From: Actinomycetes bacterium
Lineage (GTDB): Bacteria > Actinomycetota > Actinomycetes > Nanopelagicales > Nanopelagicaceae
DNA: 64,000 nucleotides
Direction of reading: 5' to 3'
NCBI GenBank assembly: GCA_043746515.1
Contig: JAYTQV010000048.1
Location: 6,676 to 70,675, forward strand
The position numbers and the translations under genes were made by a program. Position 1 is the first letter of the stretch. Each line of letters starts with the position of its first letter. Shown here one piece after another: positions 2,890-34,337 of this stretch. Below the pieces are notes generated by a model. It was not told the DNA's origin. It worked only from the letters and a program-made list of their open reading frames with translations, and did not search any database.

Positions 2890-2895
2890 AAGGGT

Positions 2896-4157: not shown

Positions 4158-4174
4158 TCTCTCCTCAATTTAAA

Positions 4175-4206: not shown

Positions 4207-4222
4207 CCTATAAAGTTAAGGC

Positions 4223-4465: not shown

Positions 4466-4468
4466 TTT

Positions 4469-4786: not shown

Positions 4787-5133
4787 CGAACATTGCCCCC
4801 GATCTTTTCATCGCCCACCGGCCAGTGCTTCTTCACCGCACGCACTCCTTCAATGGTCATGATCGCGGCTATCGGGACAATGAGGAAAAATAAAAACTCT
4901 TCGAGAGGGATATGGCCGGGACCATAGATCCCAAGAATCTGTTTTCGGTCAAAAAACCAATGGTGCCGTCTAATAGCATATGCATCCCACAGCAAGAAGA
5001 AAAATGCAACAGGAGTGATACTCAGGGCCACCCGCTTAATGCGGACCAGGACGCGAACCTTCAAGACGATTTCCAACCAAAATGAACCTAGAACAGTGAA
5101 TGCTAGCATCGACATATAACTCCACTGCTTCAT
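4783..5133 (-). CDS. crtYc: Lycopene cyclase domain protein, first subunit of the heterodimeric lycopene beta-cyclase
   Basis: 116 aa, polytopic, with the PLEEFLFF motif typical of CrtYc/Yd-type cyclases. Confidence 0.75.
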   Translation of the reverse strand: MKQWSYMSMLAFTVLGSFWLEIVLKVRVLVRIKRVALSITPVAFFFLLWDAYAIRRHHWFFDRKQILGIYGPGHIPLEEFLFFLIVPIAAIMTIEGVRAVKKHWPVGDEKIGGNVR

Positions 5134-5159
5134 GGGATTAATCCTCCTACAATCACATC

Positions 5160-6065: not shown

Positions 6066-6152
6066 TTCTTTCTCATTTTCACTTTCCGTAAATGAACTAA
6101 TGCAATCTCCGTAAGGAGAACTGACACAGGATTGTTCTGCTATTTTTAGATT

Positions 6153-6884: not shown

Positions 6885-6902
6885 CAACAGCTATAAAATG
6901 GT

Positions 6903-12655: not shown

Positions 12656-13656
12656 GTACCTGCTCCTTTAATTCCAGTTAGTCCAGCTTTAAAAGAACCA
12701 ATGCGCAGACAAGCAGCCTCGCCATTTCCAGCCCGAGAAAGGTTGGGTTCAGTGGTCTGGCATTCAGAAGTAGCCGCAAAACAGCGAGGCGCGAAAGGGC
12801 ATCCTGCAACCGGTTTGGTTAGATCGGGAGCTTCACCGGCAATCGAGAAGAGTCGCTCAACCGGAATATCAGGGTCTGGTACCGATTTGAGGAGCGAGAA
12901 GGTATATGGGTGCTGAGGATCAGCATAAGTCTCTTGGACGCTACCTTTTTCTACAATGCGTCCCCCATACATAACTTGTAGGGATTCACATACTTCGTTG
13001 ATGACAGCCAGATCGTGGGTGACAAAGATCAGACCCATCTGCTCTCGCCTACGCAGGTCAATTAATAGGCGAAGAACTTGAGCTTGAATTGTCACATCCA
13101 AGGCCGTTGTTGGTTCATCACAAAAAAGCATCTTTGGCTCGCCGGCAAGTGCAAGAGCAATGGCTACTCGCTGCCTTAAACCACCAGATAACTGGTGCGG
13201 ATAACTCTTAAGTCGTTTCTCCGCCTCCGGTATGCCCACAAGATTCATTAACTCCAAGGCTTTGGCCTTGGCTTTATCTTTGGAGTAACCCAATCGATAC
13301 CGAGGGACTTCCATGATTTGATCTCCGACAGACAAGACTGGATTGAGAGCTGAGATTGCGTCTTGGAAGACGATGCCGAATTTTTTGGCGAGCACAGTTC
13401 TACGCTTCGATGCTGGCAATGAGAGAACGTTAACACCGTCGACAATAATTTCTCCGCGCGTAATAGTGGCATTGTTTGGGAGGAGATCGAGAATCGCTTT
13501 AAGCGTAATAGATTTTCCAGAACCTGATTCACCGACAATGCCCAACGCTTCACCAGCAGTTACTTCAAAGGAGACACCGCGGATAGCCTTTAACAGCCCT
13601 CGGGATGTGTGGATGTCTACGTGTAAATCATCTACTACCAATAATGGATTACTCAT
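12652..13656 (-). CDS. Peptide ABC transporter ATP-binding protein (DppD/OppD-like)
   Basis: [16 protein letters not shown] and [11 protein letters not shown]. Its C-terminus has the Cys motif CPFAPRC. Confidence 0.9.
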
Positions 13657-14453
13657 TTTGCAAACCTCCTCACAAATCCATCACCGATAAGTGAGAGGGA
13701 GAATCCAACGATAACAACCATGAATCCTGGAATAAATGGAATCCACCAACTTTGCAAAATATAGGCCTGACCTTCTTGGATCATGAGCCCCCATTCAGGA
13801 GTTGGAGAAGGGATTCCTAGACCCAAAAATGTGAGAGTCACAATCGCCAAGATACTCAAGACGATATCGCTCATTGAAAAGACAATTGCCTGCGAAATAA
13901 CATTTGGAAATACGTGGCGACGTAAAATTCTGAAAGTTGGTAGTCCACTCAACTTGGCGGCATGTATGTAGTCGAGTTCCTTCGTTACCAACACACCAGC
14001 GCGAACTATGCGGCAATATGCGACCCACCCCACAACAGTGATTGTGATGATTATTGCTTTGGCTCCAGCCCCGAAGACCAATGAGAGCGCAATTGCGAGG
14101 ACATAGAATGGGAAGGCGATCGTGATGTCGACGATACGCATGATCAGCACATCAAACCAACCTCCGTACCAGCCAGTCACCAACCCAAGAAAAGTTCCAA
14201 AGATAAAAGGAAAGAGAACGGCGAGAACTCCGATGACTAGATCTGTACGAATTCCGTAAATCAAGCGAGTGAGTACATCTCTGCCCAACTGATCTGTCCC
14301 AAGCAGGTGGTGCGAATTTGGCTTGAGTAATGTGTTGACCAAGTCTTGGGCGATGGGATCTTGATGAGTAATCCATGGCGCAAATATTGCTAATATGACA
14401 AGAGTTCCAAAGATGGCGATCCCTACCCAGAATCCGATATTTTTTATTTTCAT
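13653..14453 (-). CDS. Peptide ABC transporter permease (DppC/OppC-like)
   Basis: 266 aa, 6 TM segments, with the EAA-type loop AAKLSGLPTFRILRRHVFPN. Confidence 0.85.
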   Translation of the reverse strand: MKIKNIGFWVGIAIFGTLVILAIFAPWITHQDPIAQDLVNTLLKPNSHHLLGTDQLGRDVLTRLIYGIRTDLVIGVLAVLFPFIFGTFLGLVTGWYGGWFDVLIMRIVDITIAFPFYVLAIALSLVFGAGAKAIIITITVVGWVAYCRIVRAGVLVTKELDYIHAAKLSGLPTFRILRRHVFPNVISQAIVFSMSDIVLSILAIVTLTFLGLGIPSPTPEWGLMIQEGQAYILQSWWIPFIPGFMVVIVGFSLSLIGDGFVRRFAK

Positions 14454-15388
14454 ATTGATACCCTCGGATCAAGAGCAGCGTGAATCAGATCTGTGGCTAA
14501 GTTCACCAAAACAACCGCAACCGCAAAAAATAAAGTAACTCCTTGTACTATGGGAAAATCACGTTGACCAATTGCATTAATCATCAGACTTCCCGTCCCG
14601 GGCAGTGAGAAAACTCGCTCGATAACGACGGTAGCTCCAACCAAATAGGCAATGTTTACACCGAGCACTGTCACAGAGGCAATAAAAGCATTTCGCACCA
14701 CGTGAATTAATAAAATCCGAGAATTTTTCAAGCCTTTAGAACGGGCAGTGAGGACATAATCGGCCTCAAGGATAGAGAGCATGCTAGATCGCAAACTACG
14801 TATCAAAATGGGAGAGAGAGTTAACGCAATAGTTAGGCTGGGGAGAATCATTGCTCGCAGGTGCTCTAGAAAAGTGTTTCCAAATCCACTCACAGGAAAC
14901 CAATGGAGTTTAATTCCAAAGAGCAAGATAAGTTGTAAGCCAGTCCACACTTGCGGCATTCCAAGACCTACGATCGGAATAACTCGAATAATTTGATCGC
15001 GGGCGGATCCTTCGCGAGTAGCTGCCAATATGGCAAGAGGCAAGCTAATCAAAATCGAAAAAATAATTCCCCCGCCAAGAAGCAAAACGGTGACGTTAAG
15101 TCGAGAGTAAATGGCGGTGGAGACGGGTTGTTGAGTAAAGAAACTCGCACCTAGATTTCCATGAATGGCGTGGTTTAAAAAGTTCAGATACTGAGTGAGC
15201 AGAGGTCTATCAATGCCTAAAAGATGATGAATTTCGGCCGAACGTTGGGGGGTTGCTCGATTCCCCAAAATGGTATCCGCGGGATCTCCAGGTATCAGAT
15301 GAATAAGTGAAAATATTCCGATAGAGATACCGAAGAGAACGGGAAATACTTGCAACAATCTCTTACCTGTATAGGTTAAGAAATTCAT
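14450..15388 (-). CDS. Peptide ABC transporter permease (DppB/OppB-like)
   Basis: 312 aa with the EAA loop TARSKGLKNSRILLIHVVRNA. Confidence 0.85.
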   Translation of the reverse strand: MNFLTYTGKRLLQVFPVLFGISIGIFSLIHLIPGDPADTILGNRATPQRSAEIHHLLGIDRPLLTQYLNFLNHAIHGNLGASFFTQQPVSTAIYSRLNVTVLLLGGGIIFSILISLPLAILAATREGSARDQIIRVIPIVGLGMPQVWTGLQLILLFGIKLHWFPVSGFGNTFLEHLRAMILPSLTIALTLSPILIRSLRSSMLSILEADYVLTARSKGLKNSRILLIHVVRNAFIASVTVLGVNIAYLVGATVVIERVFSLPGTGSLMINAIGQRDFPIVQGVTLFFAVAVVLVNLATDLIHAALDPRVSI

Positions 15389-15452
15389 AAAACTACCACC
15401 TACACTTTCAGAAGGGATCTAGAAGGTGCGATTGACTTGCTCCGACTGAAGA

Positions 15453-15506
15453 AGTTCAACTCTCACTCAGCAATGTTTTTATAACAGGCTAAGCAAGAGT
15501 TGAACT
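15453..15506 (-). promoter_or_regulatory. Intercistronic stem-loop between the binding-protein gene and the permease genes
   Basis: Perfect 11-bp inverted repeat agttcaactct (15453-15463) / agagttgaact (15496-15506). It lies just downstream of the binding-protein stop, the position typical of mRNA-stabilising hairpins in ABC operons. Confidence 0.5.
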
Positions 15507-15532
15507 CACGAACTTCACTTCTCTGTGGAGCT

Positions 15533-17067
15533 TTAGTTCTTCTTTACATCCTCCATGTGGTACTGGAGTGTAGGTGTAACTTGGAAGCCAGTGATTTTGC
15601 TACTCCACGTGTACACATATGGTGCGTTGTACACATACATCATCGTTGCTTCATTAGCCGTAATTGTCTGAGCCAAAGAATAAGCCTTTTGGCGCGCAAT
15701 TGGGTTTACAGTGGTCTGACCCAACTTGACCGCTGCTACAACCTTTGGATTGTTGTAACTGGTATAGAAGTCGTTGGTTCCACCCTCAACTGGATTGAGC
15801 GCGAATGTCATAAGCTCATCAGGATCTGAAATATCCATCGTCCAACCAGTGCTGGTAATGTCATAGTTCTGGGCTTTCTGAGTTGCACGCTTGACCGATG
15901 GTTCCTGAGTCTTGATCAAGAGTGTCACGCCGATCTTCTTCAGCGCAGCCTGGAAGATTGAGCTAATAGCTGAATCTTGAACGCTACCGGCTGTAGATAG
16001 ATAGGTGAGCTTCAGGCCCTTCGCATATTTCTTGGAGAGAGCCAACTCTGCAGCGGCCTTCTTCAAGTTGTATTGGATTCCTGGAGTCTTGGGATCGTAG
16101 TAACCGACGTTTGGAGCCATGATCGAGTTCGATGCAGTTCCCAAGCCGGCTAAGACAACTTTAATGATTGATTTGCGATCCAAGGCATAAGAGAGTGCAC
16201 GGCGTACATGTACATCTGCGAGTGCTGGAACTTTTTCGTTCATAGCCAAGTATTCAGATTGCGCAGCCGGGAAAGCTTTACCCGTGATACCAGGAGTCTT
16301 TAGAGCTTGAGCGAATGAGGTTGAAGGGGGAAATTCGTTGATATCTGACTGTCCTGATTGGAGATCGAGTGCACGTGTATTGTCATCTGCAACATAACGC
16401 CAATCAACAGAGTTTAGATATGGCTTGCCTGGCTGCCAGTAGCTCTTGTTAGCTACAAACTTGATGTCGGTTCCTGGAGTCCATGATTGAAGCATGAACG
16501 GACCTGTTCCAACTGGTGCCTTGAAGAATGCATCTGCAGTCATTCCGCCGTAGTTATTTGGGAGGATTGCGTTAGAAAAGCAGGCAAGATCCGAGAGCAT
16601 TGGGGCCCAAGGGGTTTTGGTTTTGATGATAACTGTGTCAGGTGTTGGTGCCGTGACAGAGGCGACTTGAGTAAGAAGGAATCCCCAACCACTGCCCTTC
16701 TCAGCTGTATCCAGGGAGAATTTGACATCAGCAGAAGTCATTGGTGTGCCATCACTGAATTTTACATCTGTACGCAATTTGATCGTCCAAGTGAGTTTAT
16801 CCGACCCAACTGTTCCACTCTTTGCCAACCATGGCCGAACTGACTTGCCGTCCTGGTTAATCATGAAGAGAGGTTCGAAGATTTGCTGCTGAATAAAGAT
16901 GGAGTCATTCTGAGCAAGATCAGGATTAAATGTTGCAAAATCTTGGTTTCTCTCGAGGATCAAGTCCCCTTTAGGTGAGGCATTATCCGCGCGCGCCGAA
17001 ACGGCCATGGCTGAGGACATGACGACAGCCAGTGCCATTGTCAGACCCAGGATTTTTTTAGTTTTCA
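15533..17067 (-). CDS. ABC transporter substrate-binding protein, family 5 (peptide/nickel type)
   Basis: SBP_bac_5-like sequence. I moved the start to GTG 17067, which has AAGGAG 8 nt upstream. This gives the signal peptide VKTKKILGLTMALAVVMSSAMAVSARA. Confidence 0.85.
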
Positions 17068-17160
17068 CTATGTGGTGCTCCTTTTCTGGAATATATCCGA
17101 AAGCTCTACAGCTCTGAGGGAGAAGCGAAGGCTGCATAATCTTCGTTGAAGCAGCCCAAT

Positions 17161-17203
17161 TTTGCGTAACAGCATTCAACTCGCAGTTAGGAGATTACGC
17201 AAA
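17161..17203 (-). promoter_or_regulatory. Inverted repeat in the leader/promoter region of the peptide-transporter operon
   Basis: tttgcgtaa (17161-17169) / ttacgcaaa (17195-17203), 9 bp perfect, about 95-135 nt upstream of the binding-protein start. Function unknown. Confidence 0.3.
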
Positions 17204-23895: not shown

Positions 23896-23912
23896 ATTGA
23901 AGTCTAACCTAC

Positions 23913-24680
23913 TCACGCGCCACTACCGAGTAATGACGTTGTTAAACAGACAGAAATTAACGCGCCTAAGATCATAAATGGACCAAAGGGGAGAGCTGTT
24001 TTACGTGTACCTTTTTGCGAAATTATGATTGCTATTCCTACGACACTACCCATCGCGAAACTCACCATTGCAGCGATGTAAACCGAAATTGCGCTGATAT
24101 AACCCACATAGAGGCCAATGGAGGCAGCGAGTTTGACATCTCCCATCCCCATTCCACCTTTAGATAATAAATTTACCAACCAAAAGAAGGCGCTATACAA
24201 AATAGATGCAATAAGTGCACTGCGAAGATGCTCAAAGTGATGATTCATGAAGGCATCCAGAGTTAATAGCACTAACCCACATAAATAAAGTGCAGCATTG
24301 AGACCATTAGGAAGTCGATGCCATTGAAAATCAATTGCTGAGAGTGCCACACCCAAAATCACAAAGACTGCCCAGGCTGCGATCAGTGTAAGGTGATGAA
24401 AAACGATGAAAGGTATGAAGGTCGCTGCTGCTGTGATCAGTTCTAAGTAGAGATAACTTCTGGAGAAACTTTCACTGCAATTTCTACATTTACCTCTCAA
24501 TCGTAGATATCCTAGAAGAGGAATATTGTCCTTATTTTGGATTTGTATTCCGCAGAGCGTGCATTTAGATCGACCCAACAGACTCTCTCCGTGAGGTACC
24601 CGAGCCACTAAAACCGTATTAAATGATCCAAAAGTGAGTCCCAAAATAAGAACAAGAAGATAAAGCAAGAGCGGTGGCAT
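23913..24680 (-). CDS. pilD: Prepilin peptidase (A24 family)
   Basis: CTLCG and CRNCS zinc-type pairs, the GMGDVKL aspartyl-protease motif, and a polytopic topology. I moved the start to ATG 24680 (MPPLLLYLLV) to clear the pilin gene. Confidence 0.85.
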   Translation of the reverse strand: MPPLLLYLLVLILGLTFGSFNTVLVARVPHGESLLGRSKCTLCGIQIQNKDNIPLLGYLRLRGKCRNCSESFSRSYLYLELITAAATFIPFIVFHHLTLIAAWAVFVILGVALSAIDFQWHRLPNGLNAALYLCGLVLLTLDAFMNHHFEHLRSALIASILYSAFFWLVNLLSKGGMGMGDVKLAASIGLYVGYISAISVYIAAMVSFAMGSVVGIAIIISQKGTRKTALPFGPFMILGALISVCLTTSLLGSGA

Positions 24681-24712
24681 ATTCACTCCTACCACCGCTC
24701 CCACTTTAGGGG

Positions 24713-25186
24713 TTATATTCCGGCCGCGGCGCAACCTGCGGGACTACTACCCACCGCAGGACCAACAATAATCACAGGTGCTGCTAACGCGACACCGGCT
24801 TTTGCAGTTACGAGATAGGCAGTGACATCCGTTGGTATTTTTGAAATGAATGAGGGCGTGAGTGCAGCAAGATCAGCTGCTTGATATGGAGTGAAGTCGT
24901 ATAACACAGTGCTTCCGATATTAGGTATTACCCCGCCAGTGACAGCAGTTCCAGTTGCCGCAGGAAGGGTTGCATTCACAGCGTAGTTCGAGAATGCAGA
25001 GTGAACATTTGAGGTATCTTGTGAACAGGCCTTTGCCTTGGCATCGGCACTAGTGCCAGAAAGAGCAACCACGACAATGGCTGCCAAAATTCCGATGATC
25101 AGGATAACAATCAAGAGTTCGATAAGCGTGAACCCGTCTTGACCAGCATCCTTGCGGGCTTTTGCCCTTCGTAGTACTTCGTGCAT
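24713..25186 (-). CDS. Type IV pilin-like protein (probable major pilin)
   Basis: Prepilin leader ending in G, then FTLIELLIVILIIGILAAI (E at +5). I moved the start to ATG 25186, which has AAGGAG upstream. Confidence 0.8.
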   Translation of the reverse strand: MHEVLRRAKARKDAGQDGFTLIELLIVILIIGILAAIVVVALSGTSADAKAKACSQDTSNVHSAFSNYAVNATLPAATGTAVTGGVIPNIGSTVLYDFTPYQAADLAALTPSFISKIPTDVTAYLVTAKAGVALAAPVIIVGPAVGSSPAGCAAAGI

Positions 25187-25209
25187 GATTGTTCTCCTTC
25201 TATGTGGGG

Positions 25210-25857
25210 TTAGTTCAGCAGAGTGCAAGCCGAGGGAGCCGTATTTCCAAGACGGTCCCCTTTGGCGTTGTAAAGATAGACATCGTATGAACTTGCATTA
25301 TTTGTCAAGGCGTTGAGAATTCCACCGGACGAGTTGATAGGTGTAGGTGGAATAGTCAGTACCGATGTGACACTGAATGTCACTGTGTATGTAGGGCCAG
25401 TACCAGCGAAAGAAGCAACCGTCCAGGTTCCATCTATATTCACGGAATCTATTCCGAAAACTTGGATCGTCTCCCCTACGGTTATTGGTGGAAAATACGA
25501 AGAGGCGAATGACAAAGTAGCCACCTGCGAAGCCAGTGCATAGTTGGTAATCGAGTAGGAACCTAATTGCATAGTAAAATTGTTCGAAAAAGAACTAATC
25601 AATCCAGCATTGATATATGTTGGTTGTAAAGATAAGAGTGATGGAGGTAGAACCCCATTGTTATCACTTTGATATGAAGATACACCTAAGGAAACAGCTT
25701 GATAGGCCGTTTTACAAGCATTCTGCATGGAAGTAACACGACTAGAACCTAAAGCAACATAGGTTATTCCCGAAAGAATGCCTAAGACGCAAAGAACAAC
25801 GATTAATTCAATCAATGTGAGTCCACTTTCCTGCCGATGAGGTGGCGCAATTTTCAT
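25210..25857 (-). CDS. Pseudopilin/minor pilin with a prepilin-type N-terminus
   Basis: ESG|LTLIELIVVLCVLGILSG. It overlaps the upstream gene by 4 nt. Confidence 0.7.
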   Translation of the reverse strand: MKIAPPHRQESGLTLIELIVVLCVLGILSGITYVALGSSRVTSMQNACKTAYQAVSLGVSSYQSDNNGVLPPSLLSLQPTYINAGLISSFSNNFTMQLGSYSITNYALASQVATLSFASSYFPPITVGETIQVFGIDSVNIDGTWTVASFAGTGPTYTVTFSVTSVLTIPPTPINSSGGILNALTNNASSYDVYLYNAKGDRLGNTAPSACTLLN

Positions 25858-27392
25858 GATCCAGTACTCGTAATCGAGAAGTTGCTGGACGGATTTAGTC
25901 CAGATTTATCGTCAATAACAATTACATGTTGAATGACCCTGCCACTTGGAGTTGTAAAGGAAATTTTCAGATGACGGCCAGTGACTGCAGGTCCGACTAA
26001 AACTGGAAAGGCACAGGAGCCACCCCCAGTCATGCAGGTGAACTTCGCACCGTTTGACACCACCCCTCCGTCAATTTCATGTTGATCTCTCTGGCCTTCG
26101 TCAACTCTTACATTCGATCCCGAAGCTAATACCGTTCCGTAGATAAATGTCTTTGCAGTTGCCGTTGCGTACGCGTAAAAAAGAGGAGTATTACCAGTAT
26201 GAACTGCTGGACAATTTGAACTATTTCCTCGTTTAACGGCACACACTATTGCGTGACTACTGTCGGCAGAGATGATGGCAAAACTCTGTCCTATTGCTTG
26301 ACGAGGTCCACAAATTCTAAAATCTCCATCACGGTTTGAAAGAGTTGCCGAGTCACCAAATACCAACTGGGTTCCAGATACCTCCGTACTTGTTTGCGGA
26401 TCAGCAGGCGTAACACCGTGATTGTAAGAACACCCTGTGGCTAATCCTGAAATGTCATACTTAACATTTGCATCAGAAGGATCATTGTGAACCAGAATGC
26501 TCTCTGAAAGATCGTTTGTGTCCCGCCTTACATCAAGAACTTTCGTCCCTTTAAAGTAAAGCACGCCTCGCCCTAACTCGATATCGATCCCGTGAGACCA
26601 ACTTTCAGAATCAGAGCAATCTCTATCAGTGTATGTACCATTTGATTTATAGGTGCGGATTCTCTCTTGTGAGAATAGAACATTTAATTGGTCAATCGCC
26701 TCATCATTGTAATTTCCACTTGGGATCAAGATTGGAGTATTGAGTGCGGAACAACTCTTGGGCAGATAAGAATTTATTGACCCCGTATTTCCGGTCCCTG
26801 GATCAAAGACAGGTAAAACCGGGATGACAGAGCTTGTTGGAAGATTAGACGCATTTGTTGAAATAACTCCCGCAGAAGCTGAAACTCCAGATATAGCTCC
26901 TCCTGAAGGAGTAAGAATTTGAGTTGCAGTAACGCTTCCGGAAGTCACGCTGACGTTATCGCTTTGCGATTCAATAGAACTATTAAATGCATAAGACCCG
27001 ATAATAGAAACCCCATTATCCACGCCGGTGGAGGTTCCGTTTGGAGAAGTAGTCGTCACCGATGAGGTGGCTAAAGGTTGATTACTGCCGGTAACAGGTA
27101 CACAAGAAACAGTTACACCAGAAACAACTGTTGGAAGTCCACAATTTGGTTGGGTAATGGAGTCAAACGCGGCTGAACCGAGAGTCGGATTAATAGTCAA
27201 TTGCTCCAGGACTGTTGAAGTAGCAACAGCCACTTGGCTCGCACTCATTGTTTGTGCTGCGAGTCGCTGACCTCCTGACCCTGATGCCTGCGTGAGCAAG
27301 AGTGAAACTCCGAGCCAACCACCGAGAATCGTTACGAAGATTAAAACAACAGCTAGAACAGAACCAACCTCAGAATCTCGACCGTTCATCAT
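25854..27392 (-). CDS. Large pilus-operon protein with a TadG/TadE-like N-terminal anchor; the rest is unassigned
   Basis: I moved the start to ATGATG 27392, which has AAGGAG upstream and an ATGA overlap with the preceding stop. N-terminus MMNGRDSEVGSVLAVVLIFVTILGGWLG. The ~480 aa that follow are Ser/Thr/Gly/Cys-rich with no motif I recognise. Confidence 0.6.
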   Translation of the reverse strand: MMNGRDSEVGSVLAVVLIFVTILGGWLGVSLLLTQASGSGGQRLAAQTMSASQVAVATSTVLEQLTINPTLGSAAFDSITQPNCGLPTVVSGVTVSCVPVTGSNQPLATSSVTTTSPNGTSTGVDNGVSIIGSYAFNSSIESQSDNVSVTSGSVTATQILTPSGGAISGVSASAGVISTNASNLPTSSVIPVLPVFDPGTGNTGSINSYLPKSCSALNTPILIPSGNYNDEAIDQLNVLFSQERIRTYKSNGTYTDRDCSDSESWSHGIDIELGRGVLYFKGTKVLDVRRDTNDLSESILVHNDPSDANVKYDISGLATGCSYNHGVTPADPQTSTEVSGTQLVFGDSATLSNRDGDFRICGPRQAIGQSFAIISADSSHAIVCAVKRGNSSNCPAVHTGNTPLFYAYATATAKTFIYGTVLASGSNVRVDEGQRDQHEIDGGVVSNGAKFTCMTGGGSCAFPVLVGPAVTGRHLKISFTTPSGRVIQHVIVIDDKSGLNPSSNFSITSTGS

Positions 27393-28474
27393 GAGATGCT
27401 CCTTGCGGCCAATATGACTTGCGTAGGATATTGGTTGGCACTGGAACCGATCGTTGCAGGAACGGTAAATGTAAGTCCAGGATTTGTCGCAGCAACATTG
27501 AGAAATGTATTCGTTGGGCAAGTTCCACTTGAAACCACTGAAGCAACAAAGGTTGCACATTTGAGTGCCGTTGACCAGTCCACGTTTGAATTTGATAGAG
27601 CAAGATTGTTCCGCAACATTTGTGAAGTAGCGCTGGTAATTGCGATCTGTGGAGCCGCACATTGGATTCTCCACAACTGACCATACGAACTACCAACTGA
27701 GCGCACCTCATAGCCCACGAATTTGTTATAGACAAGGATTCCGGGGCTGGTAGTAACACCTGTCCCAAAATTATTTAATGTGAAAGTTTTATTTCCTGGG
27801 TTGGTAGCAATAACTATGGCACCAATAGAGTTATAAGTCGTCGGAACCATTCCTGAAACAGTAATGCTCTGTCCAGGTGCAAAGGCAATCTGACCTGAAT
27901 ACGTATAGGTTGCAATCACACCTGTTCCGATCGCGGAGGTGATCGTTGCTCCCGATTGCTGACTAAAAGTGACTATCGGGCGTACAAATGAATAAGTCGA
28001 ATCGCTGGGAAGCCAGGTACTACATTGAGTAAGAAAGCTCCCCACTCCACTAGCAATTCCAGTGGTGGAATTGAGAATTGTAAATGTGGTTGCCGATGGA
28101 ACGGAGGTAATCGTTGCATTTGAAACATCATATCCACTCGGTACTAAGCCTGAAATAGAAATATTTTGACCCACAGTTAGTGTGTTAGTCCCGGAGTGTG
28201 TGTAGGTAACGGTTACTCCATCACCGGAAACACCTGTGATCGAACTAGCTCCCGCGGCTGTCGGTATGATAAAACCATTGGATTGCTCTACATCTTTAGT
28301 GAATGTGGCATCCAATATAGACACTCCTGAACTGACAAGTGATGTACTTTGACTGTGGCTAATGGACGCCACGCTGGCATCAAAAGTTTTTGCTATTCCC
28401 AATGTCAGAATGGATGAAAGAAAAACTGTTAAAATTACCTCGAGAAGAGTGACTCCCTGATCGGAAGTATTCAA
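27389..28474 (-). CDS. Long pseudopilin with a prepilin-type N-terminus and two copies of a ~60-aa repeat
   Basis: MNTSDQG|VTLLEVILTVFL. TTG start directly after the upstream TAA. The internal repeats are described in the findings. Confidence 0.65.
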   Translation of the reverse strand: MNTSDQGVTLLEVILTVFLSSILTLGIAKTFDASVASISHSQSTSLVSSGVSILDATFTKDVEQSNGFIIPTAAGASSITGVSGDGVTVTYTHSGTNTLTVGQNISISGLVPSGYDVSNATITSVPSATTFTILNSTTGIASGVGSFLTQCSTWLPSDSTYSFVRPIVTFSQQSGATITSAIGTGVIATYTYSGQIAFAPGQSITVSGMVPTTYNSIGAIVIATNPGNKTFTLNNFGTGVTTSPGILVYNKFVGYEVRSVGSSYGQLWRIQCAAPQIAITSATSQMLRNNLALSNSNVDWSTALKCATFVASVVSSGTCPTNTFLNVAATNPGLTFTVPATIGSSANQYPTQVILAARSIS

Positions 28475-29410
28475 TTAGATCGCCGCCACTATGGTTCTTG
28501 ACAATTGTTTTCCATGTACTGTCGTACTCACTGTAATTTGCTGAATACTCACGCACTTGGTCAGACCAACAAAACCGCCTGATGCAAAAGTACCGGTAGC
28601 AGAGTTGGCCACCACAAATTGGGTACTCGTAGCACTGACAACCGTCGCAGAGGCTAGATTAAAGACTGAGGGGCTAACGCCAGAAATAGATACGTTGTCT
28701 CCCACCGCAAAAGGAGTTGGCGACACATAAGTGTAGGTAATAGCAGAGCCATTGGCAGATATTCCCGTGATATTTGCCTTAGGAACACTCTGACAAGGAG
28801 TCCAATTGATTGAAGAATTGTTCACTTGCACCAAAACTGAAACGATTGTAAGCGGAAGATTTTTGGAGACGGAAACGCCTTGACTAGTAACTGTGAACTT
28901 ATAAATCGCAGAACTTTCGGCTATCGGGGTTCCGGAAATAACACCATTCGCAGAGAGTGAGAGCCCGGTAGGTAAAACAGGAGAGACACCCCATGTGTAG
29001 GTTGACAGACCATTCACAGCCGAAAGAGCCGTTGAGTAAGGGTGAAAGATTCCTCCAGATGGAGACTGCGCAATCGGCAGTGCCGAAGTGGAAATTGCAA
29101 GGGATCCTGAGGTTACGGACGGTGGCGCAATAGCCGCGGTTGATAGCTGGTATGGCTCAGGATTTACAGGTGAGCAAGGTTGAAAAATCTGTAGTTGAAT
29201 TTGTTGCGAAGCCGAGTTCAAGTTAGCCATCGCGGTGCCCGTGAGATTAACCCTGTCCGAGAGAGGTTGAGATAGTGCAATCGTTCCTACAATTGTCAAC
29301 CCGAGCAAGCCCATGATCACGGCTGAAACGATTACTTCTACCAAAGATTCACCACGGTCGTAACGGCGTTTTTTATAGTTATATTTTTCGAAATTTTCTC
29401 TCATACTCAT
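28475..29410 (-). CDS. Long pseudopilin with a prepilin-type N-terminus, an Ig-like (He_PIG-type) segment and one copy of the ~60-aa repeat
   Basis: RG|ESLVEVIVSAVIMGLLG (E at +5). The segment YTWGVSPVLPTGLSLSANGVISGTPIAE resembles the putative-Ig-domain pattern. Confidence 0.65.
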   Translation of the reverse strand: MSMRENFEKYNYKKRRYDRGESLVEVIVSAVIMGLLGLTIVGTIALSQPLSDRVNLTGTAMANLNSASQQIQLQIFQPCSPVNPEPYQLSTAAIAPPSVTSGSLAISTSALPIAQSPSGGIFHPYSTALSAVNGLSTYTWGVSPVLPTGLSLSANGVISGTPIAESSAIYKFTVTSQGVSVSKNLPLTIVSVLVQVNNSSINWTPCQSVPKANITGISANGSAITYTYVSPTPFAVGDNVSISGVSPSVFNLASATVVSATSTQFVVANSATGTFASGGFVGLTKCVSIQQITVSTTVHGKQLSRTIVAAI

Positions 29411-30735
29411 ACTTTTACCCCGTTATATATTCCATACATCGCCGATACCAGGGCAACAGCTACGAACCCAACTCCGCCACCAATCAATAGGAGAGTAATC
29501 GGCTCTAGGAGAGAAGTGAAATTCTTCATGCGGTGATCTAGTTCATCAGAGTAGAAGCTGGCTGCTTGTTGCAACTGAGATTGAAGTTGACCGGACTCTT
29601 CCCCAATGCGAAGAATTTGAATAGCAGCAATTGGGAAAATTTTGTACTCGGATAATGGCTCAGCTAGGCCCTCACCATTTAAAACTCTCACTCGAGTCGC
29701 ACTCACAGCCTGTTGAAAGACCATGTTTCCAGTTGCTTTCCCAGACAGTTCCAGCGCGTCAGGAAGCGGTACCTTTGATTTCACTAGGGTTGCCAACACG
29801 CGACAGAAACGTTCCAGAGATACCAGTCGTGCTAAACCACCAAACACTGGGACAGATAGAACTAAACGATCGAGAATCAAACGACTCCTACGATTACGTA
29901 ACGCTAGTACGAAGGCAATAATAAATAGCAATATGACCGAACCAATAGCCCACCACCACTTCGTAATGAAATGTGTGCCGTTAAGAAGCATCCGAGTAGT
30001 GAGTGGTAGCCGAACATTCAGAGAAGCGAAGAAGTCTTGGAACCGTGGTAACACCACTAGCGACATGACGGTAACAGCGACAAGAGTGAGTGTGAGAAGG
30101 ACTGCAGGATAAATCATCGCCGAACGCACAGCACGGCGAGATCGAAGGTCTCGTTCCAAATAAATATTGAGGGTTTGTAGCGCTTCTACTAGGTCCCCGC
30201 TTCGTTCAGCTGCTCCTAAAATGGTGGCATAGTAAGTAGGAAAAACATGTGGATGCCGTGAGACGGACTCACTAAGAGTTGCTCCTCCTTCGATATCTTG
30301 CACCAACTCCCCCAAAATTAACTGCATTTTCTTGTGGTCAGTTGTCTTGGCTAAAATTGCCAGCCCGCGAGCTGCAGAAATACCAGCTTGCGAAAAGGAG
30401 GAGAGTTGTCGAGTCGTTTGCAAGAGAACTTCCAGTGGAACTGATTTTCCAAACTCCATAGCAAGTAAAGATTTGTGAACCTTGAGCTCGAGACTTTGGA
30501 TTCCATCACGCTGTAATCCGTACTGTGCTTCACCCCAAGTGGCCGCCTTGACAGTTCCTTTCTTTTTTTCTCCTGTTTCCAAAACTCCAGAATACTTGTA
30601 CATGTTAATAATTTTCTTCTGCTTCTTGGCATTCGCTTTAAGCCCCTTTTTCGCCTTTGGTAACTTTGCCTGCTTCTGCTTTTTTACTGACTCTGTTGAA
30701 TTTATAACCTCTATTGGGTTCGCTAGATCAGTCAT
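29407..30735 (-). CDS. pilC: Type IV pilus/T2SS platform protein (GspF/PilC family)
   Basis: 442 aa with two T2SSF-type repeats and 3 TM segments. It has a Lys-rich N-terminal extension. Confidence 0.85.
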   Translation of the reverse strand: MTDLANPIEVINSTESVKKQKQAKLPKAKKGLKANAKKQKKIINMYKYSGVLETGEKKKGTVKAATWGEAQYGLQRDGIQSLELKVHKSLLAMEFGKSVPLEVLLQTTRQLSSFSQAGISAARGLAILAKTTDHKKMQLILGELVQDIEGGATLSESVSRHPHVFPTYYATILGAAERSGDLVEALQTLNIYLERDLRSRRAVRSAMIYPAVLLTLTLVAVTVMSLVVLPRFQDFFASLNVRLPLTTRMLLNGTHFITKWWWAIGSVILLFIIAFVLALRNRRSRLILDRLVLSVPVFGGLARLVSLERFCRVLATLVKSKVPLPDALELSGKATGNMVFQQAVSATRVRVLNGEGLAEPLSEYKIFPIAAIQILRIGEESGQLQSQLQQAASFYSDELDHRMKNFTSLLEPITLLLIGGGVGFVAVALVSAMYGIYNGVKV

Positions 30736-32350
30736 CTGACACCATTAACGTAAGGGCTTCGGCGAGAGTTGTAATTCCTTCAGTCGCTAAGCGAACGGCT
30801 TCATAATCCATTCCAGTCATTCCAGATTCAGAAGCATATTTGCGAAATTCATTTGGTTCAGGTCGAGAGACAATGAGGTCACTTAGCGCCTCTGTCATCT
30901 CTAGTACTTGATACGTCGCGATGCGGTCGCGGAACCCAGAGCCCCCACAAAGAGTGCAGCCAACTCCACGTGCTAATTTTGTTGTGGTAAATCCATATGA
31001 CTTTAAAGTTCTTAACTCATCAACATTGGCTGCGTATACGACAGTACAAAAACGACAATTTCTCCTTACCAATCTTTGGGAGATGACTCCCCTTAGGGAT
31101 GAAGCGACGAGGTGAGGTTCAATATCCATTTGGAGCAATCGATAGATGGCCCCCACTGAATCTGTCGCGTGGATCGAACTGAAAACTAAATGTCCTGTGA
31201 GGGCAGCTTGCACTGATATTCTCGCTGTTTCAGCATCTCGAGTTTCGCCAACCAAAATGATGTCAGGATCTTGGCGCAGTACCGCGCGCAGTTGAACCGC
31301 AAAACCTGCATTGACCGGATCGATAATGGGAATCTGAGTGATTCGAGGTACTACATATTCAACAGGATCTTCAATTGTTACGATATTTTTCCATTCAACT
31401 GTCACTGCTTTGATTCCACTATGAAGCGTTGTTGTCTTTCCACTACCAGTTGGCCCAGCCACCATAACCAACCCACTAGTTGATCGAATCATGGTGGAAA
31501 AAATGTCTAGTTGTTTGCCGCTCATGCCGAGCGTTTCCAGCGAGACCGATTGTTTGCGTGCATCATGCAGACGCAAAACTAACTTCTCACCATGCATTGT
31601 TGTAACTGACGAAACGCGTATATCAATATGACGATCACCAACAGTGGCGGAAAATTGACCGTCTTGGGGGCGCCTGCGCTCCACGATATTCATTTGAGAA
31701 AGTACTTTTACTCGACTATTAACGGCTGGACCCAACCGTGCGGGCAACACCACAAGTAGACGCAGACGACCATCCACACGAATTCTCACTACCAGTTCAT
31801 CTTTATAAGGTTCGAAATGCACATCGCTAGCACGTTCCAGGACGGCACGTTCGATTACTTGTTGTACCAAATTGGAGATTGGTGCTTCTCCAACTTCCGA
31901 GATGAGAATGTCAAAAAGATGTCCTTTTGATTTGGCAATACTTGCAGTTAAGGAAATGGCTTCGCGTATCTCATTGGGAGTAGCTGGCTTCAATTTGATT
32001 TTAAGATCAACACTGGCCGCATAATCTCGAATCGACTGCCAGGATTCTTTGGGAGCTCCGATGACGAGCGTGTCCCCGTCCCAACGAAGTCCTAGGCAAT
32101 CGAACTCGCTCATTAAAGAATCAGGTAAAGCGGCATTTGCAGAGAGGAAGGACTCAGTCGTGAGGGCTGCGACTATCGGATCTTGAATATTGAGATTTGT
32201 CGGAATTAGGGAGAAATCATCTGAACTATTCGATTCTTGGGGTTCTGGCTGAGCTTGGAGTGAAGCGAGGGTTGGGAATGGAAGTACGTCGGCGCCAGCA
32301 CCCTCGTTCTCGCCTGAATCAAAAAGCGGCGCTACTTCCAGGATTGACAT
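30728..32350 (-). CDS. pilB: Type IV pilus assembly ATPase (GspE/PilB family)
   Basis: Walker A GPTGSGKTT, Asp/His boxes, and the tetracysteine CRFC...CTLCGGSG. GGAGGGG RBS upstream. Confidence 0.9.
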   Translation of the reverse strand: MSILEVAPLFDSGENEGAGADVLPFPTLASLQAQPEPQESNSSDDFSLIPTNLNIQDPIVAALTTESFLSANAALPDSLMSEFDCLGLRWDGDTLVIGAPKESWQSIRDYAASVDLKIKLKPATPNEIREAISLTASIAKSKGHLFDILISEVGEAPISNLVQQVIERAVLERASDVHFEPYKDELVVRIRVDGRLRLLVVLPARLGPAVNSRVKVLSQMNIVERRRPQDGQFSATVGDRHIDIRVSSVTTMHGEKLVLRLHDARKQSVSLETLGMSGKQLDIFSTMIRSTSGLVMVAGPTGSGKTTTLHSGIKAVTVEWKNIVTIEDPVEYVVPRITQIPIIDPVNAGFAVQLRAVLRQDPDIILVGETRDAETARISVQAALTGHLVFSSIHATDSVGAIYRLLQMDIEPHLVASSLRGVISQRLVRRNCRFCTVVYAANVDELRTLKSYGFTTTKLARGVGCTLCGGSGFRDRIATYQVLEMTEALSDLIVSRPEPNEFRKYASESGMTGMDYEAVRLATEGITTLAEALTLMVSDD

Positions 32351-32388
32351 CTCTACCCCTCCATTCCATCTGGTCTGTAACCCAAAAC

Positions 32389-32440
32389 TTTACAAAATTT
32401 TGTCACATTAAATTACAAAATTGCCCCAATAAATTGACAA
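32389..32440 (-). promoter_or_regulatory. Putative pilB-operon promoter with a palindromic operator candidate
   Basis: Read on the minus strand: TTGTCA (32440-32435), a 17-nt spacer and TGTAAT (32417-32412). The perfect 12-bp palindrome ACAAAATTTTGT (32392-32403) lies at about +1. The direct repeat TTACAAAATT occurs at 32390-32399 and 32413-32422. Confidence 0.4.
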
Positions 32441-32515
32441 TTTACTCGCTTTGCCAAGGAATGTAAAGAATTTTTAGATTTAATTTAGAATTTCTGTTTA
32501 GTGGGAGTGTGGAAC

Positions 32516-32564
32516 AAAAAGAGAGCACCCCATGGGCGAAATGCCCTTGGGGTGCTCTCTTTTT
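32516..32564 (-). terminator. Strong, bidirectional-looking rho-independent terminator downstream of the small peptide ORF
   Basis: Arms aaaaagagagcacccca (32516-32532) / tggggtgctctcttttt (32548-32564), with an inner gggc/gccc pairing. T-runs follow on both strands. Confidence 0.8.
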
Positions 32565-32581
32565 GAAGAAAACGTATTAGC

Positions 32582-32743
32582 TTAGGAGAATTGGCAGCAC
32601 GTTGGCGGGCCAGCCATGGTGACGGTTTGACTCGAAGCAGTTGAAGTGGATGACTTCTTAAGCGTGGAAGCGAAAGAAGGTGTTGCACTGAGAACGATTC
32701 CCATCGAGAGTGCAACGGATATTGCAATTACCTTTTTGACCAT
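32582..32743 (-). CDS. Small secreted peptide precursor (53 aa) ending in a vicinal Cys pair; hypothetical
   Basis: Hand-translated because it falls below the ORF-track cut-off: MVKKVIAISVALSMGIVLSATPSFASTLKKSSTSTASSQTVTMAGPPTCCQFS*. GAGGGGA lies 9 nt upstream of ATG 32743. It has a Sec-type signal with an SFA|S site. The terminator begins 17 nt after the stop. Confidence 0.6.
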   Translation of the reverse strand: MVKKVIAISVALSMGIVLSATPSFASTLKKSSTSTASSQTVTMAGPPTCCQFS

Positions 32744-32873
32744 GTGATTCATTCCCCTCGATTAAAGCGTGAAACCGGTCTCATGATCGGCTTTATGAAA
32801 CTCCGTATTTTTTTGCTGATGTCAATATGTGTAACACTCGAAGTAAAGCACTGTCATGTGATACTGTCAAGAT

Positions 32874-34235
32874 ATGGGAAATCAAACATTTGGCGAACGT
32901 CTTCGTCAAATTCGAGTGAATGCAGGATTAACTCAACCTGAACTTGCTACGGGGATAACTAGCGTAAGCCACATCTCACTGATCGAGTCTAATAAGCGAC
33001 AGCCTTCTTCAGAGATTGTTTCTAACCTTGCCACTCGTCTAGGTGTGCCGGTCGATTTTCTGCGCGAAGGGCCTGAATCGGAATCTAATCTAAATCGACG
33101 CAAAGAATATCTCTTCGCGGAAATTTCCTTCAAAAATGGTGATGCTAAATTTGCCCAAGGCTTATTAGAAAAAGTCATTAAACAGAGTTCGTACCCTACG
33201 GATTTGCAGTTCGAAGTAAATGTGCGATCTCTATTTGCTCAAACATTCGCTAAATTCGGCGACTTTGAGCGAGCCTCGGCAGAACTGCAGGAGGCTATCT
33301 CATTAGCTGAAATTGCTGGGCTTCCGCTTCAGGTGATTGAAATGAAAATTGCTCAATCGTACTTTTTCAAAGAATCAGGTGATTTTGTCACCGCACTCGA
33401 AATAATTGAGAATGCTGAAAAAGCAGTTCCAGCGCAATTACAAAAGAGTGCTCCCTTTGCGCGATTACTTTCCAGCAAGATTTCGATTCATTACCTACGT
33501 GGAGATTACATTCGCGCAACTCAAATCTCCCAAAATGCCATGGCAATATTCGATGATCAAACGGATCCAGTTGCTCGAGCATCTATTTACTGGAATGCCA
33601 GTCTGGCAGCTGATGCGATGCAAAACTCCAGCCAAGCACTTTTACTGGCACAAAGAGCTGCTGGTCTTTTTTCTGAATCTGAAGATCGCCAAGCGGAAGG
33701 AAATCTACGTGTTGCTATTGCATGGTTGCTGACTCGTCAGACTCCACCCGATGTCAATGGTGCTAGATCACAATTAGATCGTGCACATATTCTTCTCGAA
33801 GCTAATGGGACATCAGTTGATGTAACTTATTATCACATTGAATTGGCAAGAGTTGAGTGGCTAAGTGGCAACTATGAAGAGGCACTCGCATTAAGCCAGC
33901 TTGCTATTGCAGATACCGATCCCATGAAGGAACGTTTACAACGAGCTGATGCATATTTGCTTTCTGCCCGCTCTCACATCAGTTTAGGTAATGAAGCAGA
34001 GTCAACCATGAACTTACTTGCTGCGAGAAGTAGTCTCTTGGAGATGGAGCCATCTAGGCAGAACGCTTTAGCGTGGCGTGAATTAGGTGATATTTACTCT
34101 AGTCTTGATTATCTCGAAGATGCGATTAATGCATATCGAGAAGCCCTGCAGGAGGCCGGTGTCTCCGCGAGCCCGCTAGCATTCTCCGAATTCGAACGCG
34201 CAAAAGAGACTGTAAAAGTCCTTAGAAAAAATTAA
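32874..34235 (+). CDS. HTH (XRE family) transcriptional regulator with a long C-terminal TPR-like domain
   Basis: N-terminal FGERLRQIRVNAGLTQPELATGITSVSHISLIESNKRQPSSEIVSNLATRLGV is an XRE-type HTH. The remaining ~380 aa are repetitive helical hairpins (e.g. YEEALALSQLAI, LEDAINAYREALQ). There is no Shine-Dalgarno sequence. TGtGATACT lies 8 nt upstream of the ATG, so the mRNA is probably leaderless. Confidence 0.75.
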   Translation: MGNQTFGERLRQIRVNAGLTQPELATGITSVSHISLIESNKRQPSSEIVSNLATRLGVPVDFLREGPESESNLNRRKEYLFAEISFKNGDAKFAQGLLEKVIKQSSYPTDLQFEVNVRSLFAQTFAKFGDFERASAELQEAISLAEIAGLPLQVIEMKIAQSYFFKESGDFVTALEIIENAEKAVPAQLQKSAPFARLLSSKISIHYLRGDYIRATQISQNAMAIFDDQTDPVARASIYWNASLAADAMQNSSQALLLAQRAAGLFSESEDRQAEGNLRVAIAWLLTRQTPPDVNGARSQLDRAHILLEANGTSVDVTYYHIELARVEWLSGNYEEALALSQLAIADTDPMKERLQRADAYLLSARSHISLGNEAESTMNLLAARSSLLEMEPSRQNALAWRELGDIYSSLDYLEDAINAYREALQEAGVSASPLAFSEFERAKETVKVLRKN

Positions 34236-34264
34236 GGTAATACTAACCTAATAAAAGAAGTACG

Positions 34265-34337
34265 TGCCCCGGGTCGGACTCGAACCGACACTGGAAGGAT
34301 TTTAAGTCCTCTGTCTCTGCCATTGGACTACCGGGGC
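34265..34337 (-). tRNA. tRNA with anticodon UAA (nominally Leu) by hand fold, but with a 5-nt variable loop
   Basis: Minus strand, dot-separated by structural element: GCCCCGG.TA.GTCC.AATGGCAG.AGAC.A.GAGGA.CTTAAAA.TCCTT.CCAGT.GTCGG.TTCGAGT.CCGAC.CCGGGGC.A. The fold has a 7-bp acceptor stem, a canonical T-arm GTTCGAGTC, U33, the anticodon TAA and discriminator A73. CCA is not encoded. Confidence 0.75.

Follow-up and report, generated by a model that had tools for sequence, protein, structure and literature searches.

A candidate RRNPP-type peptide-signaling cassette beside a type IV pilus operon in an actinobacterium

Organization of the locus

The locus described here lies in a 64,000-nucleotide stretch of contig JAYTQV010000048.1 (the window) from a Nanopelagicaceae assembly (GCA_043746515.1), and window coordinates are used throughout. 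It contains a regulator gene whose product joins a helix-turn-helix (HTH) domain to tetratricopeptide repeat (TPR)-like repeats, a divergently oriented gene for a small putative propeptide, and the intergenic block between them. This 1.65-kb unit (32582-34235) is called the cassette below. A sequence-only reading of the same DNA had named three units here, a type IV pilus operon, a secreted-peptide gene and a divergent 453-aa HTH+TPR regulator, and all three are present where it had placed them. The features of the cassette and of the terminator that follows it are these:

32874..34235, plus strand: regulator gene, 453 aa, with Pfam matches to HTH_3, TPR_12 and TPR_MalT
32818..32873, no strand assigned: putative divergent promoter/operator block of ~55 bp, from inter-locus alignment and a position weight matrix (PWM)
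32753..32759, minus strand: Shine-Dalgarno sequence GAGGGGA of the propeptide gene, conserved in aligned loci
32582..32743, minus strand: propeptide gene, 53 aa from Met4; the listed open reading frame (ORF) extends to 32752
32669-32743, minus strand: predicted signal peptide MVKKVIAISVALSMGIVLSATPSFA of the propeptide, from translation
32585-32668, minus strand: 28-aa pro-region STLKKSSTSTASSQTVTMAGPPTCCQFS, from translation
32585-32611, minus strand: conserved C-terminal GPPTCC(QFS) motif of the propeptide, from translation
32516..32564, minus strand: predicted intrinsic terminator hairpin 3' of the propeptide gene, from folding energy and z-score

The propeptide gene

The small ORF at 32582-32752 on the minus strand encodes MNHMVKKVIAISVALSMGIVLSATPSFA followed by STLKKSSTSTASSQTVTMAGPPTCCQFS, with the predicted cleavage site at their junction, and it is 56 aa long from its first ATG. 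The Shine-Dalgarno sequence GAGGGGA directly abuts that ATG, so the start is probably Met4 at 32743, which gives a product of 53 aa. The secreted small gene of the sequence-only reading stands, with its probable start shifted. Related loci, labelled L001 onward, were drawn from genomes, metagenomes, assemblies and plasmids, and in 12 aligned loci the reverse-strand form of this sequence (TCCCCTC) is nearly invariant at its position.

An alignment of 18 peptides leaves Met1 and two cysteines as the sole invariant residues. All 18 nevertheless share the same plan, which begins with a K/R n-region, a hydrophobic core of 13-15 residues and a small-x-Ala site (SFA before S in the window). Between the signal peptide and the C-terminal motif, [G/x]-P-x-x-C-C, lies a spacer of 0-25 residues whose length changes in steps of whole codons; 0-6 residues remain after the motif. 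The peptides of the relatives are 34-71 aa long.

The small ORF might be fortuitous, in which case the regulator would be an ordinary orphan XRE/TPR factor. It has no Pfam or NCBIfam match, and gene callers overlooked it in several loci (L038 and L039, for example), as this explanation would have it. Against it, the ORF, its Shine-Dalgarno sequence, its signal-peptide character and its CC end are kept down to 26% regulator identity, and indels in the spacer preserve the frame. As a control, both strands of the window and of the loci fetched by then, ~650 kb in all, were searched for distinct ORFs of 25-70 aa. Of the 4,242 small ORFs obtained, only 16 begin like a signal peptide and also have CC among their final eight residues; every one of the 16 adjoins the regulator, leaving zero false positives. 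A chance origin is effectively refuted by these comparisons, its probability being close to nil, and on this evidence we take the small ORF to be a real conserved gene.

Two other interpretations of the Cys-Cys end were rejected. It is not read as a lipobox or sorting signal because the cysteines are C-terminal and come after a normal signal peptidase I (SPI) site. The endings CC, CCxx and CCxxx also resemble a Rab prenylation-type motif, a likeness deemed coincidental because no prenyltransferase is linked to the gene and the peptide is predicted to be Sec-exported.

Conservation of the peptide-regulator pair

Sixteen distinct loci were classed as close: their regulators share 52-81% identity with the query, and enough upstream DNA was available. 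In all 16 the regulator is preceded, at a distance of 120-150 bp, by an oppositely oriented ORF of 40-58 aa. The divergent spacing in the window is ~130 bp measured from Met4 and 121 bp measured from the first ATG. Of 13 remote loci, where the regulator is 26-35% identical, five carry a CC-peptide gene beside it, so that the co-occurrence of peptide and regulator expected by the sequence-only reading is found at both distances:

L021: regulator 35% identical; peptide ends in LNPPKCC
L045: regulator 32% identical; signal peptide followed by just GPAMCC (6 residues)
L053, Streptomyces goshikiensis plasmid: regulator (WP_328777711.1) 31% identical; peptide WP_008741297.1, annotated as hypothetical, ends in DIPLCC; its gene lies downstream on the same strand
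L046: regulator 30% identical; peptide ends in FAGCC
Nonomuraea gerenzanensis: regulator 26.5% identical; divergent 44-aa ORF that ends in DAGCC

Some remote regulator homologs (25-28% identical, plus one from Gaiellaceae) adjoin small signal-peptide-like ORFs that are without CC and end instead in Trp/Pro motifs such as RTPIWPP, AAFYPHW and ADAPWPGK. These ORFs may represent a second peptide type that belongs to a sister subfamily. They are located as follows:

L036, 9779-9877, minus strand: Trp/Pro-type ORF
L037, 7973-8071, minus strand: Trp/Pro-type ORF
L047, within 4810-4980, minus strand: Trp/Pro-type ORF
L052, 4890-4979, plus strand: Trp/Pro-type ORF

A different situation is seen in L023-L033, where only the last 124 regulator codons are left, as a 142-aa ORF (9962-10390 in L032, for example). 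The HTH, most of the TPRs and the peptide gene are deleted in this apparently abundant lineage, whose contigs reach 365 kb. The CopC/CHRD and SCO1 genes that flank the remnant match those of L039, so the cassette has recently been lost in some populations.

Divergent promoter region and terminator

The ~55 bp before the regulator ATG, TTGTCAATTTTCnTTACAnnnTnAGTAAAGCAGTGTCATGTGnTAnTGTCAAGnC-ATG, are nearly invariant among regulators that are only 52-81% identical. Judged by consensus, this block contains a promoter for each gene. The predicted peptide promoter, P_pep, is on the minus strand and has a -35 element TTGACA (32865-32870), a 17-nt spacer and a -10 element TTTACT (32842-32847). The predicted regulator promoter is on the plus strand and has an extended -10 element, TGATACTGT (32859-32867; TGnTAnTGT), that ends 6 nt short of the ATG. 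No Shine-Dalgarno sequence precedes this ATG, and together with the position of the -10 element this indicates a leaderless regulator mRNA. Leaderless mRNAs are common in Actinobacteria. Because the two promoters overlap, RNA polymerase is probably unable to occupy both together.

The block holds TGTCA repeats, and in several clades it also has a CTTTAC-N5-7-GTAAAG dyad. Both are candidate operator elements. A PWM built from the block with the window excluded from its training finds the cassette site as its unique top match, at 20-25 bits. An Rfam scan of the whole window returned a tRNA alone; in 32351-32873 it detected neither a riboswitch nor any known leader.

On the other side of the propeptide gene, the hairpin at 32516-32564 has a folding energy of -41.9 kcal/mol (z -9.3) and consists of a 17-bp stem, an inner stem and a U-tract. 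It is symmetric enough to work on both strands. This terminator, which stands between the peptide gene and pilB, is kept in L038.

Similarity of the regulator to PlcR

The regulator has an N-terminal XRE-type HTH at approximately residues 5-65, followed by ~9 TPR-like helix pairs at residues 70-452. Its Pfam matches to HTH_3 (38.5 bits) and TPR_12 (48.1 bits; cut-off 30.1) both exceed their cut-offs. An AlphaFold (AF2) model built from a 40-sequence alignment is all-helical, with a five-helix HTH and a TPR-like superhelix, and has a mean predicted local distance difference test score of 89.4. A profile search of 1.84 billion representative proteins gave 1,220 clusters at E <= 1e-30. Nearly all of the top 150 are full-length proteins of ~435-490 aa, and family members are given as ~435-470 aa. 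Residues conserved in the family include W240/N241, D211 and R395. These homologs bear generic names only. One that is 54% identical is named Candidatus Nanopelagicaceae; with the lake metagenomes from which relatives come and a GC content of 47%, it points to an uncultured freshwater actinobacterium that is probably Nanopelagicales-like.

Among solved structures, the best natural match to the regulator by sequence is PlcR (2qfc), with E 2.1e-7 for the single sequence and 2.2e-18 for the family profile. The alignment is colinear and ungapped in register, pairing residues 4-183 with residues 4-183 across the HTH, the linker helix and the first TPRs. The comparison with the PlcR fold that the sequence-only reading had suggested was made with Foldseek, which puts eukaryotic TPR domains that bind peptides (LGN/Pins) first. 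PlcR-PapR complexes take ranks 24 and 39 (E 3e-7; template modeling score, normalized to the length of PlcR, 0.54). The 50 matches listed also include MalT domain III but no HTH-TPR transcription factor other than PlcR. A Foldseek search against viral structures gave no AimR-like or other specific match.

Other members of the receptor family are more distant. ComR matches span only the ~65-aa HTH: the single sequence gives E 0.07-0.3, and the profile reaches 3e-9 with fragments that contain the HTH alone. Searches of PDB sequences found no significant match to NprR or Rap.

Comparison with known RRNPP systems

The RRNPP signature of Bernard et al. 2023 (PMC10075063) has five parts: a propeptide of 10-100 aa, a Sec/SPI signal (or one of the SHP type), a receptor of ~250-500 aa, TPRs, and adjacency of the two genes. 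All five are found in the pair, with the signal peptide called by a heuristic rule. The survey in which the signature was used took in Firmicutes and viruses alone, and it describes Actinomycetota as typically using small-molecule signals such as butyrolactones (PMC10075063). Actinobacteria are not mentioned in an evolutionary study of the RRNPPA family, which treats it as a family of the Firmicutes (PMC9765709). Our literature searches found no report of an actinobacterial RRNPP system.

The closest parallel is with PlcR-PapR. In both cases the receptor joins an XRE HTH at its N-terminus to a TPR domain that binds peptide (predicted here), the propeptide has a Sec signal, its conserved and presumably active part is C-terminal, and the receptor and propeptide genes are adjacent. 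The PlcR-PapR peptide is re-imported by Opp, and an Opp-type system is encoded in the window. There are also differences. PlcR has ~285 aa and 5 TPRs, whereas the receptor here has 453 aa and ~9 TPR-like pairs. The papR gene is downstream on the same strand, an arrangement found here only in L053, while most loci have a divergent peptide gene upstream of the regulator. The active end of PapR is not known to contain cysteine, whereas the peptide here ends in P-x-x-C-C. PlcR-PapR belongs to the Bacillus cereus group and the cassette to an Actinomycetota host, and no PlcR-box-like palindrome is defined in the cassette.

NprR-NprX and Rap-Phr of Bacillus have receptors of similar size (~380-420 aa, ~7-9 TPRs) and a Sec-exported propeptide that is cut extracellularly to a short peptide, as we propose for the cassette. 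Rap is without an HTH, and the peptide chemistry of NprR and Rap systems is unlike that of the cassette. PrgX/PrgQ of the Enterococcus plasmid pCF10 has divergent overlapping promoters, and the cassette is similar in that the P_pep -35 element overlaps the predicted start of the leaderless regulator transcript. However, PrgX/PrgQ has no sequence match to the regulator, is plasmid-borne and controls conjugation, and its PrgQ-derived peptides are not equally dependent on a Sec signal.

Many Rgg/SHP systems likewise have a divergent peptide gene with target genes downstream of it. ComRS controls competence genes, including those of the Com pilus. SHP and ComS peptides are without Sec signals and use PptAB (PMC10075063, PMC7564271), unlike the cassette peptide with its canonical Sec signal. 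A ComR/ComS-type switch, the analogy drawn by the sequence-only reading, was therefore rejected, since the propeptide has a Sec-type signal and similarity to ComR is limited to the HTH. The more general proposal of an RNPP/RRNPP-like receptor-propeptide pair fares better, being supported by conservation across lineages, the C-terminal motif, PlcR homology and the five-part signature.

Proposed signaling mechanism

Taken together, these results make it probable that 32582-34235 is a self-contained peptide-signaling cassette of the RRNPP (PlcR/NprR) type, and that its family, apparently undescribed so far, is widespread in Actinomycetota. The gene content, the conserved pairing, the peptide motif, the homology to PlcR, the conserved promoter block and the terminator are observations. 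Export, processing, import and binding of the peptide, as well as the sign of regulation and its targets, are steps that we infer.

If the cassette works in this way, the near-consensus P_pep (TTGACA-17-TTTACT) would transcribe the mRNA for a 53-aa pre-propeptide that ends at the 32516-32564 hairpin. The Sec pathway would export the propeptide, and signal peptidase would cut after SFA. The resulting 28-aa pro-form would probably undergo extracellular trimming that leaves a short peptide from its C-terminus with G-P-P-T-C-C. No N-terminal trimming would be needed in L045, where GPAMCC follows the signal peptide directly, and several clades have no tail past CC. Re-import would follow, probably through an Opp-type ABC transporter. 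The Opp/Dpp importer at 11642-17179 is a candidate for this route; it is not system-specific and would only provide a prerequisite. The re-imported peptide would bind in the groove of the TPR superhelix of the 453-aa regulator, and the HTH would act on the ~55-bp block where the peptide and regulator promoters overlap, closing an autoregulatory loop. The change in the HTH would then feed back on synthesis of both peptide and receptor, and possibly also on neighboring cargo genes.

Several points weigh against this interpretation. Sec signal peptides were called by a simple heuristic rule, not by SignalP. LGN/Pins and designed CTPRs rank above PlcR in fold and profile searches, so the TPR part alone is no proof of RRNPP ancestry, and for that part taken alone the support for PlcR homology is moderate. 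No CC peptide is present at L020 (46% identity) or at eight remote homologs; those where none was found include the Streptomyces homologs L054, L055, L056 and L058 and the Gaiellaceae homolog L052. To our knowledge, the invariant Cys-Cys has no counterpart among RRNPP pheromones, and it could indicate that the peptide is modified or serves a different chemistry, for instance the sensing of metals or redox state.

The last point leads to an alternative in which the Cys-Cys peptide is an effector (thiol, metal or redox-active, antimicrobial, or a substrate for modification) and the HTH-TPR protein senses some other ligand. An invariant vicinal cysteine pair is unusual for RRNPP pheromones, and the near-consensus -35 element of P_pep is what would be expected for a strongly expressed product. 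L048 has the peptide gene, two more small ORFs and a radical-SAM gene in an order that resembles a modified-peptide cluster, and some clades have copper-related genes (CopC, SCO1, YHS) in the vicinity of the cassette. However, the copper genes are across the regulator from the peptide gene and are limited to those clades, and no modifying enzyme or dedicated exporter is conserved beside the pair. At its N-terminus the peptide has an ordinary Sec signal and AxA site, not the leader of a ribosomally synthesized and post-translationally modified peptide. The 6 residues that L045 leaves past the signal peptide suit a ligand better than an effector, and RRNPP systems are marked by just such a strict coupling of a very small secreted peptide to a TPR receptor in the cytoplasm. 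An effector is improbable on balance, and a signaling peptide read by the TPR regulator remains the preferred explanation.

The neighboring pilus operon

The pilus operon on the minus strand comprises pilB, pilC, four pilin-like genes with N_methyl matches, one ORF of 512 aa and pilD:

32351..32515, minus strand: pilB upstream region with a promoter-like site, conserved with L038
30728..32350, minus strand: pilB-type assembly ATPase, 540 aa (Pfam T2SSE, 350 bits, E 2e-104)
29407..30735, minus strand: pilC-type platform protein, 442 aa (Pfam T2SSF, two domains)
28475-29410, minus strand: pilin-like gene with a He_PIG Ig domain (Pfam N_methyl)
27389-28474, minus strand: pilin-like gene (Pfam N_methyl)
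25854-27392, minus strand: 512-aa protein with no family assigned, start taken from L038 gene calls
25210-25857, minus strand: pilin-like gene (Pfam N_methyl)
24713-25228, minus strand: probable major pilin, 171 aa (N_methyl; TIGR02532, 35 bits)
23913..24734, minus strand: pilD prepilin peptidase (Pfam A24_N_bact and Peptidase_A24)

The 512-aa ORF was listed as 606 aa and most likely begins at 27392. By Pfam the generic type IV filament set is complete, with an assembly ATPase, a platform protein, a prepilin peptidase and four pilins that have the N-methylation motif. In NCBIfam, GspE/PilB and GspF/PilC are the best models for PilB and PilC, all of them below equivalog cut-offs. The ComG models score lower and also fall short of theirs (ComGA 244.7 against 300, ComGB 119.9 against 240, ComGC 35.6 against 75), so the operon is a generic monoderm type IV filament operon and not demonstrably a Com pilus. 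The Com-like label that the sequence-only reading had given it is thus not upheld. Its statement that pilT is absent from the window is correct in that there is no second T2SSE (pilT-like) gene there; PilM/N/O/P/Q were not systematically searched for. The comF gene that it had placed at 54.3 kb corresponds to an ORF at 54308-54991, whose match to the ComF family is weak (62 bits against a cut-off of 234).

The order of genes, pilB-pilC-pilins-pilD without a secretin in the operon and with no pilT in the window, resembles that of other monoderm type IV pili (Com; Clostridial/Actinobacterial T4P). Compared with the Com pilus, the ComGA and ComGC cut-offs are not reached, GspE/PilB scores higher and one pilin-like protein has a He_PIG Ig domain.

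The two largest pilin-like proteins have in common an internal domain of ~75 aa that is 42% identical between them (28022-28246 and 28553-28777, minus strand). It corresponds to residues 212-286 of the 311-aa protein and 77-151 of the 361-aa protein. A gene for a secreted subtilisin-like (S8, mycosin-like) protease at 22726-23916 on the minus strand overlaps the pilD stop by 4 nt and does not occur in L038. It may be the last gene of the operon; that this protease processes the propeptide is speculation.

Is the pilus operon a target of the cassette?

The sequence-only reading had proposed that the cassette is a dedicated density- or signal-dependent switch for the adjacent operon, in which the peptide-bound regulator activates or de-represses the pilB promoter, as Rgg/SHP and ComRS control neighboring genes. 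The adjacency on which this idea is based is real. Both in the window and in L038, whose regulator is 81% identical, the operon comes next after the peptide gene and has the same orientation. Sister clades have pilus-related genes or remnants after the peptide gene in three more configurations: L002, L004-6 and L039 have a bicistronic unit of peptide and pilin-like gene without a terminator, L049 and L050 have pilD fragments, and L051 has a pilin pseudogene. In other clades, too, the peptide gene and the gene after it share an orientation. Our literature searches gave nothing relevant on pilus regulation in acI bacteria.

The distribution of the pilus genes argues against a dedicated switch. 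The loci with a pilus link are all close relatives that form one group (regulators 72-81% identical), which implies that the adjacency was inherited once and does not count as independent evidence. An intact operon is next to the cassette only in the window and L038, and tblastn of all window pilus proteins against all loci, run twice, found pilB and pilC in L038 alone. In the 72-73% clade, a lone He_PIG pilin-like gene is ~30-50 nt after the peptide gene with no terminator between them; it has lost the -1 Gly of its prepilin site and has large C-terminal deletions, and the L051 copy is fragmented. In the clades at 72-77% the pilus genes are thus decaying to fragments and a pseudogene where the cassette remains intact. 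Clades at <=63% identity have no pilus genes within 10 kb of the cassette and carry other genes downstream of the peptide gene.

The control sequences point in the same direction. A strong terminator stands ahead of pilB. The pilB upstream region has a promoter-like TTTACA-17-TAAATT (32439-32467) in a block that is kept in L038, and it contains the window's only exact TTGTCAATTT, a word of the sister-clade cassette consensus. An operator shared by the cassette and pilB was nevertheless rejected. With one mismatch TTGTCAATTT occurs at chance level, the CTTTAC-N7-GTAAAG dyad is not enriched and has no copy near pilB, and the PWM of the cassette block (sliding 16-nt) gives 12-14 bits upstream of pilB, which is noise, compared with 20-25 bits at its own site. 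The proposal of a switch at the head of the pilus operon is thus not supported in that form; the separate terminator, the lack of a shared site and the remnants or other genes in relatives count against a functional link. We regard a dedicated pilus switch as unlikely. Ancestral synteny, or a role of the operon as possible cargo, accounts best for the adjacency, which does not amount to a demonstrated regulatory link.

In L050 (GCA_038905535.1, regulator 74% identical) the cassette adjoins a full Tad/Flp pilus cluster, next to which there is an A24 peptidase unlike the window pilD. The cluster (316-9423) contains genes for Flp, TadE, RcpC, a TadZ-like protein, a CpaF-like ATPase and two T2SSF proteins. 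The A24 peptidase is separate from the fragment of a window-like pilD that this locus also has.

Genes downstream of the propeptide gene in other clades

What comes after the peptide gene differs between clades. At 57% identity it is a 2-oxoacid:ferredoxin oxidoreductase operon. In the 62-63% clade and in L001, one or two terminators are followed by a gene for a giant secreted surface protein, a type that in two clades takes the place next to the peptide gene on the same strand. These proteins have at least 939-1361 aa, with Cadherin-like, fn3 and BNR matches. In the 52-54% clade, a second family of small ORFs (27-aa ORFs) is downstream of the CC-peptide gene, with examples MKQLvFPlQV..GMxLCLSLALPxLxR and MRQSISPFSLLVATAFCLTFALPFLSR. 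Two such ORFs in L048 are followed by a radical-SAM gene (5932-7122, minus strand), and this unit may be a modified-peptide cluster that serves as cargo. The clade-specific genes downstream of the peptide gene look like exchangeable cargo. Their positions are these:

L041, 1-4083, minus strand: giant surface-protein gene
L042, 1-3085, minus strand: giant surface-protein gene
L008, 1-2817, minus strand: giant surface-protein gene
L001, 3-1427, minus strand: giant surface-protein gene
L012, 9527-9610, minus strand: second small-ORF family
L034, 9539-9652, minus strand: second small-ORF family
L048, 7592-7675 and 7263-7376, minus strand: second small-ORF family

On the L053 plasmid, the CC-peptide gene is followed by genes for a second small secreted protein of 68 aa (5842-6048, plus strand) and a large BTAD/SARP-type regulator (6200-9283, minus strand). 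These neighbors hint at a link to secondary-metabolite regulation on a linear plasmid.

Implications for signaling in Actinomycetota

A broader interpretation is possible, though we hold it only tentatively. The cassette may represent a peptide quorum-sensing family across Actinomycetota, including freshwater plankton, Streptomyces and Nonomuraea, that would be the first of RRNPP type outside Firmicutes and would use a (G)P-x-x-Cys-Cys signal to drive exchangeable cargo. The cargo would be the pilus operon here and giant adhesin-like surface proteins or a radical-SAM peptide cluster in other clades. The literature consulted regards peptide signaling through cytoplasmic TPR receptors as a Firmicutes trait, and an actinobacterial family would widen the range of the mechanism and add a new type of pheromone that ends in two cysteines. 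These vicinal cysteines might render the signal sensitive to redox state or metals. It would then have to be asked why abundant, genome-streamlined and supposedly solitary freshwater plankton keep a cassette for cell-cell signaling. If the pilus is cargo, it could imply control of attachment or possibly of DNA uptake, and a true pilus link would tie signaling to pili in lake bacterioplankton. The family occurs in cultured, genetically tractable Streptomyces and Nonomuraea, which makes the hypothesis directly testable.

Other features of the window

11642..17179, minus strand: Opp/Dpp-type oligopeptide ABC importer, with SBP_bac_5, two permeases and two oligo_HPY ATPases (Pfam)

Asparaginase and amidase genes adjoin this importer. 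On the far side of the cassette, the regulator gene is followed by a tRNA-Leu gene and then by a PAP2 phosphatase gene. The tRNA-Leu(TAA), at 34264-34337 on the minus strand, starts 29 bp past the regulator stop and is on the strand opposite to it. The GC content at 22-34 kb is 0.44-0.46, slightly below the mean of the window (47%).

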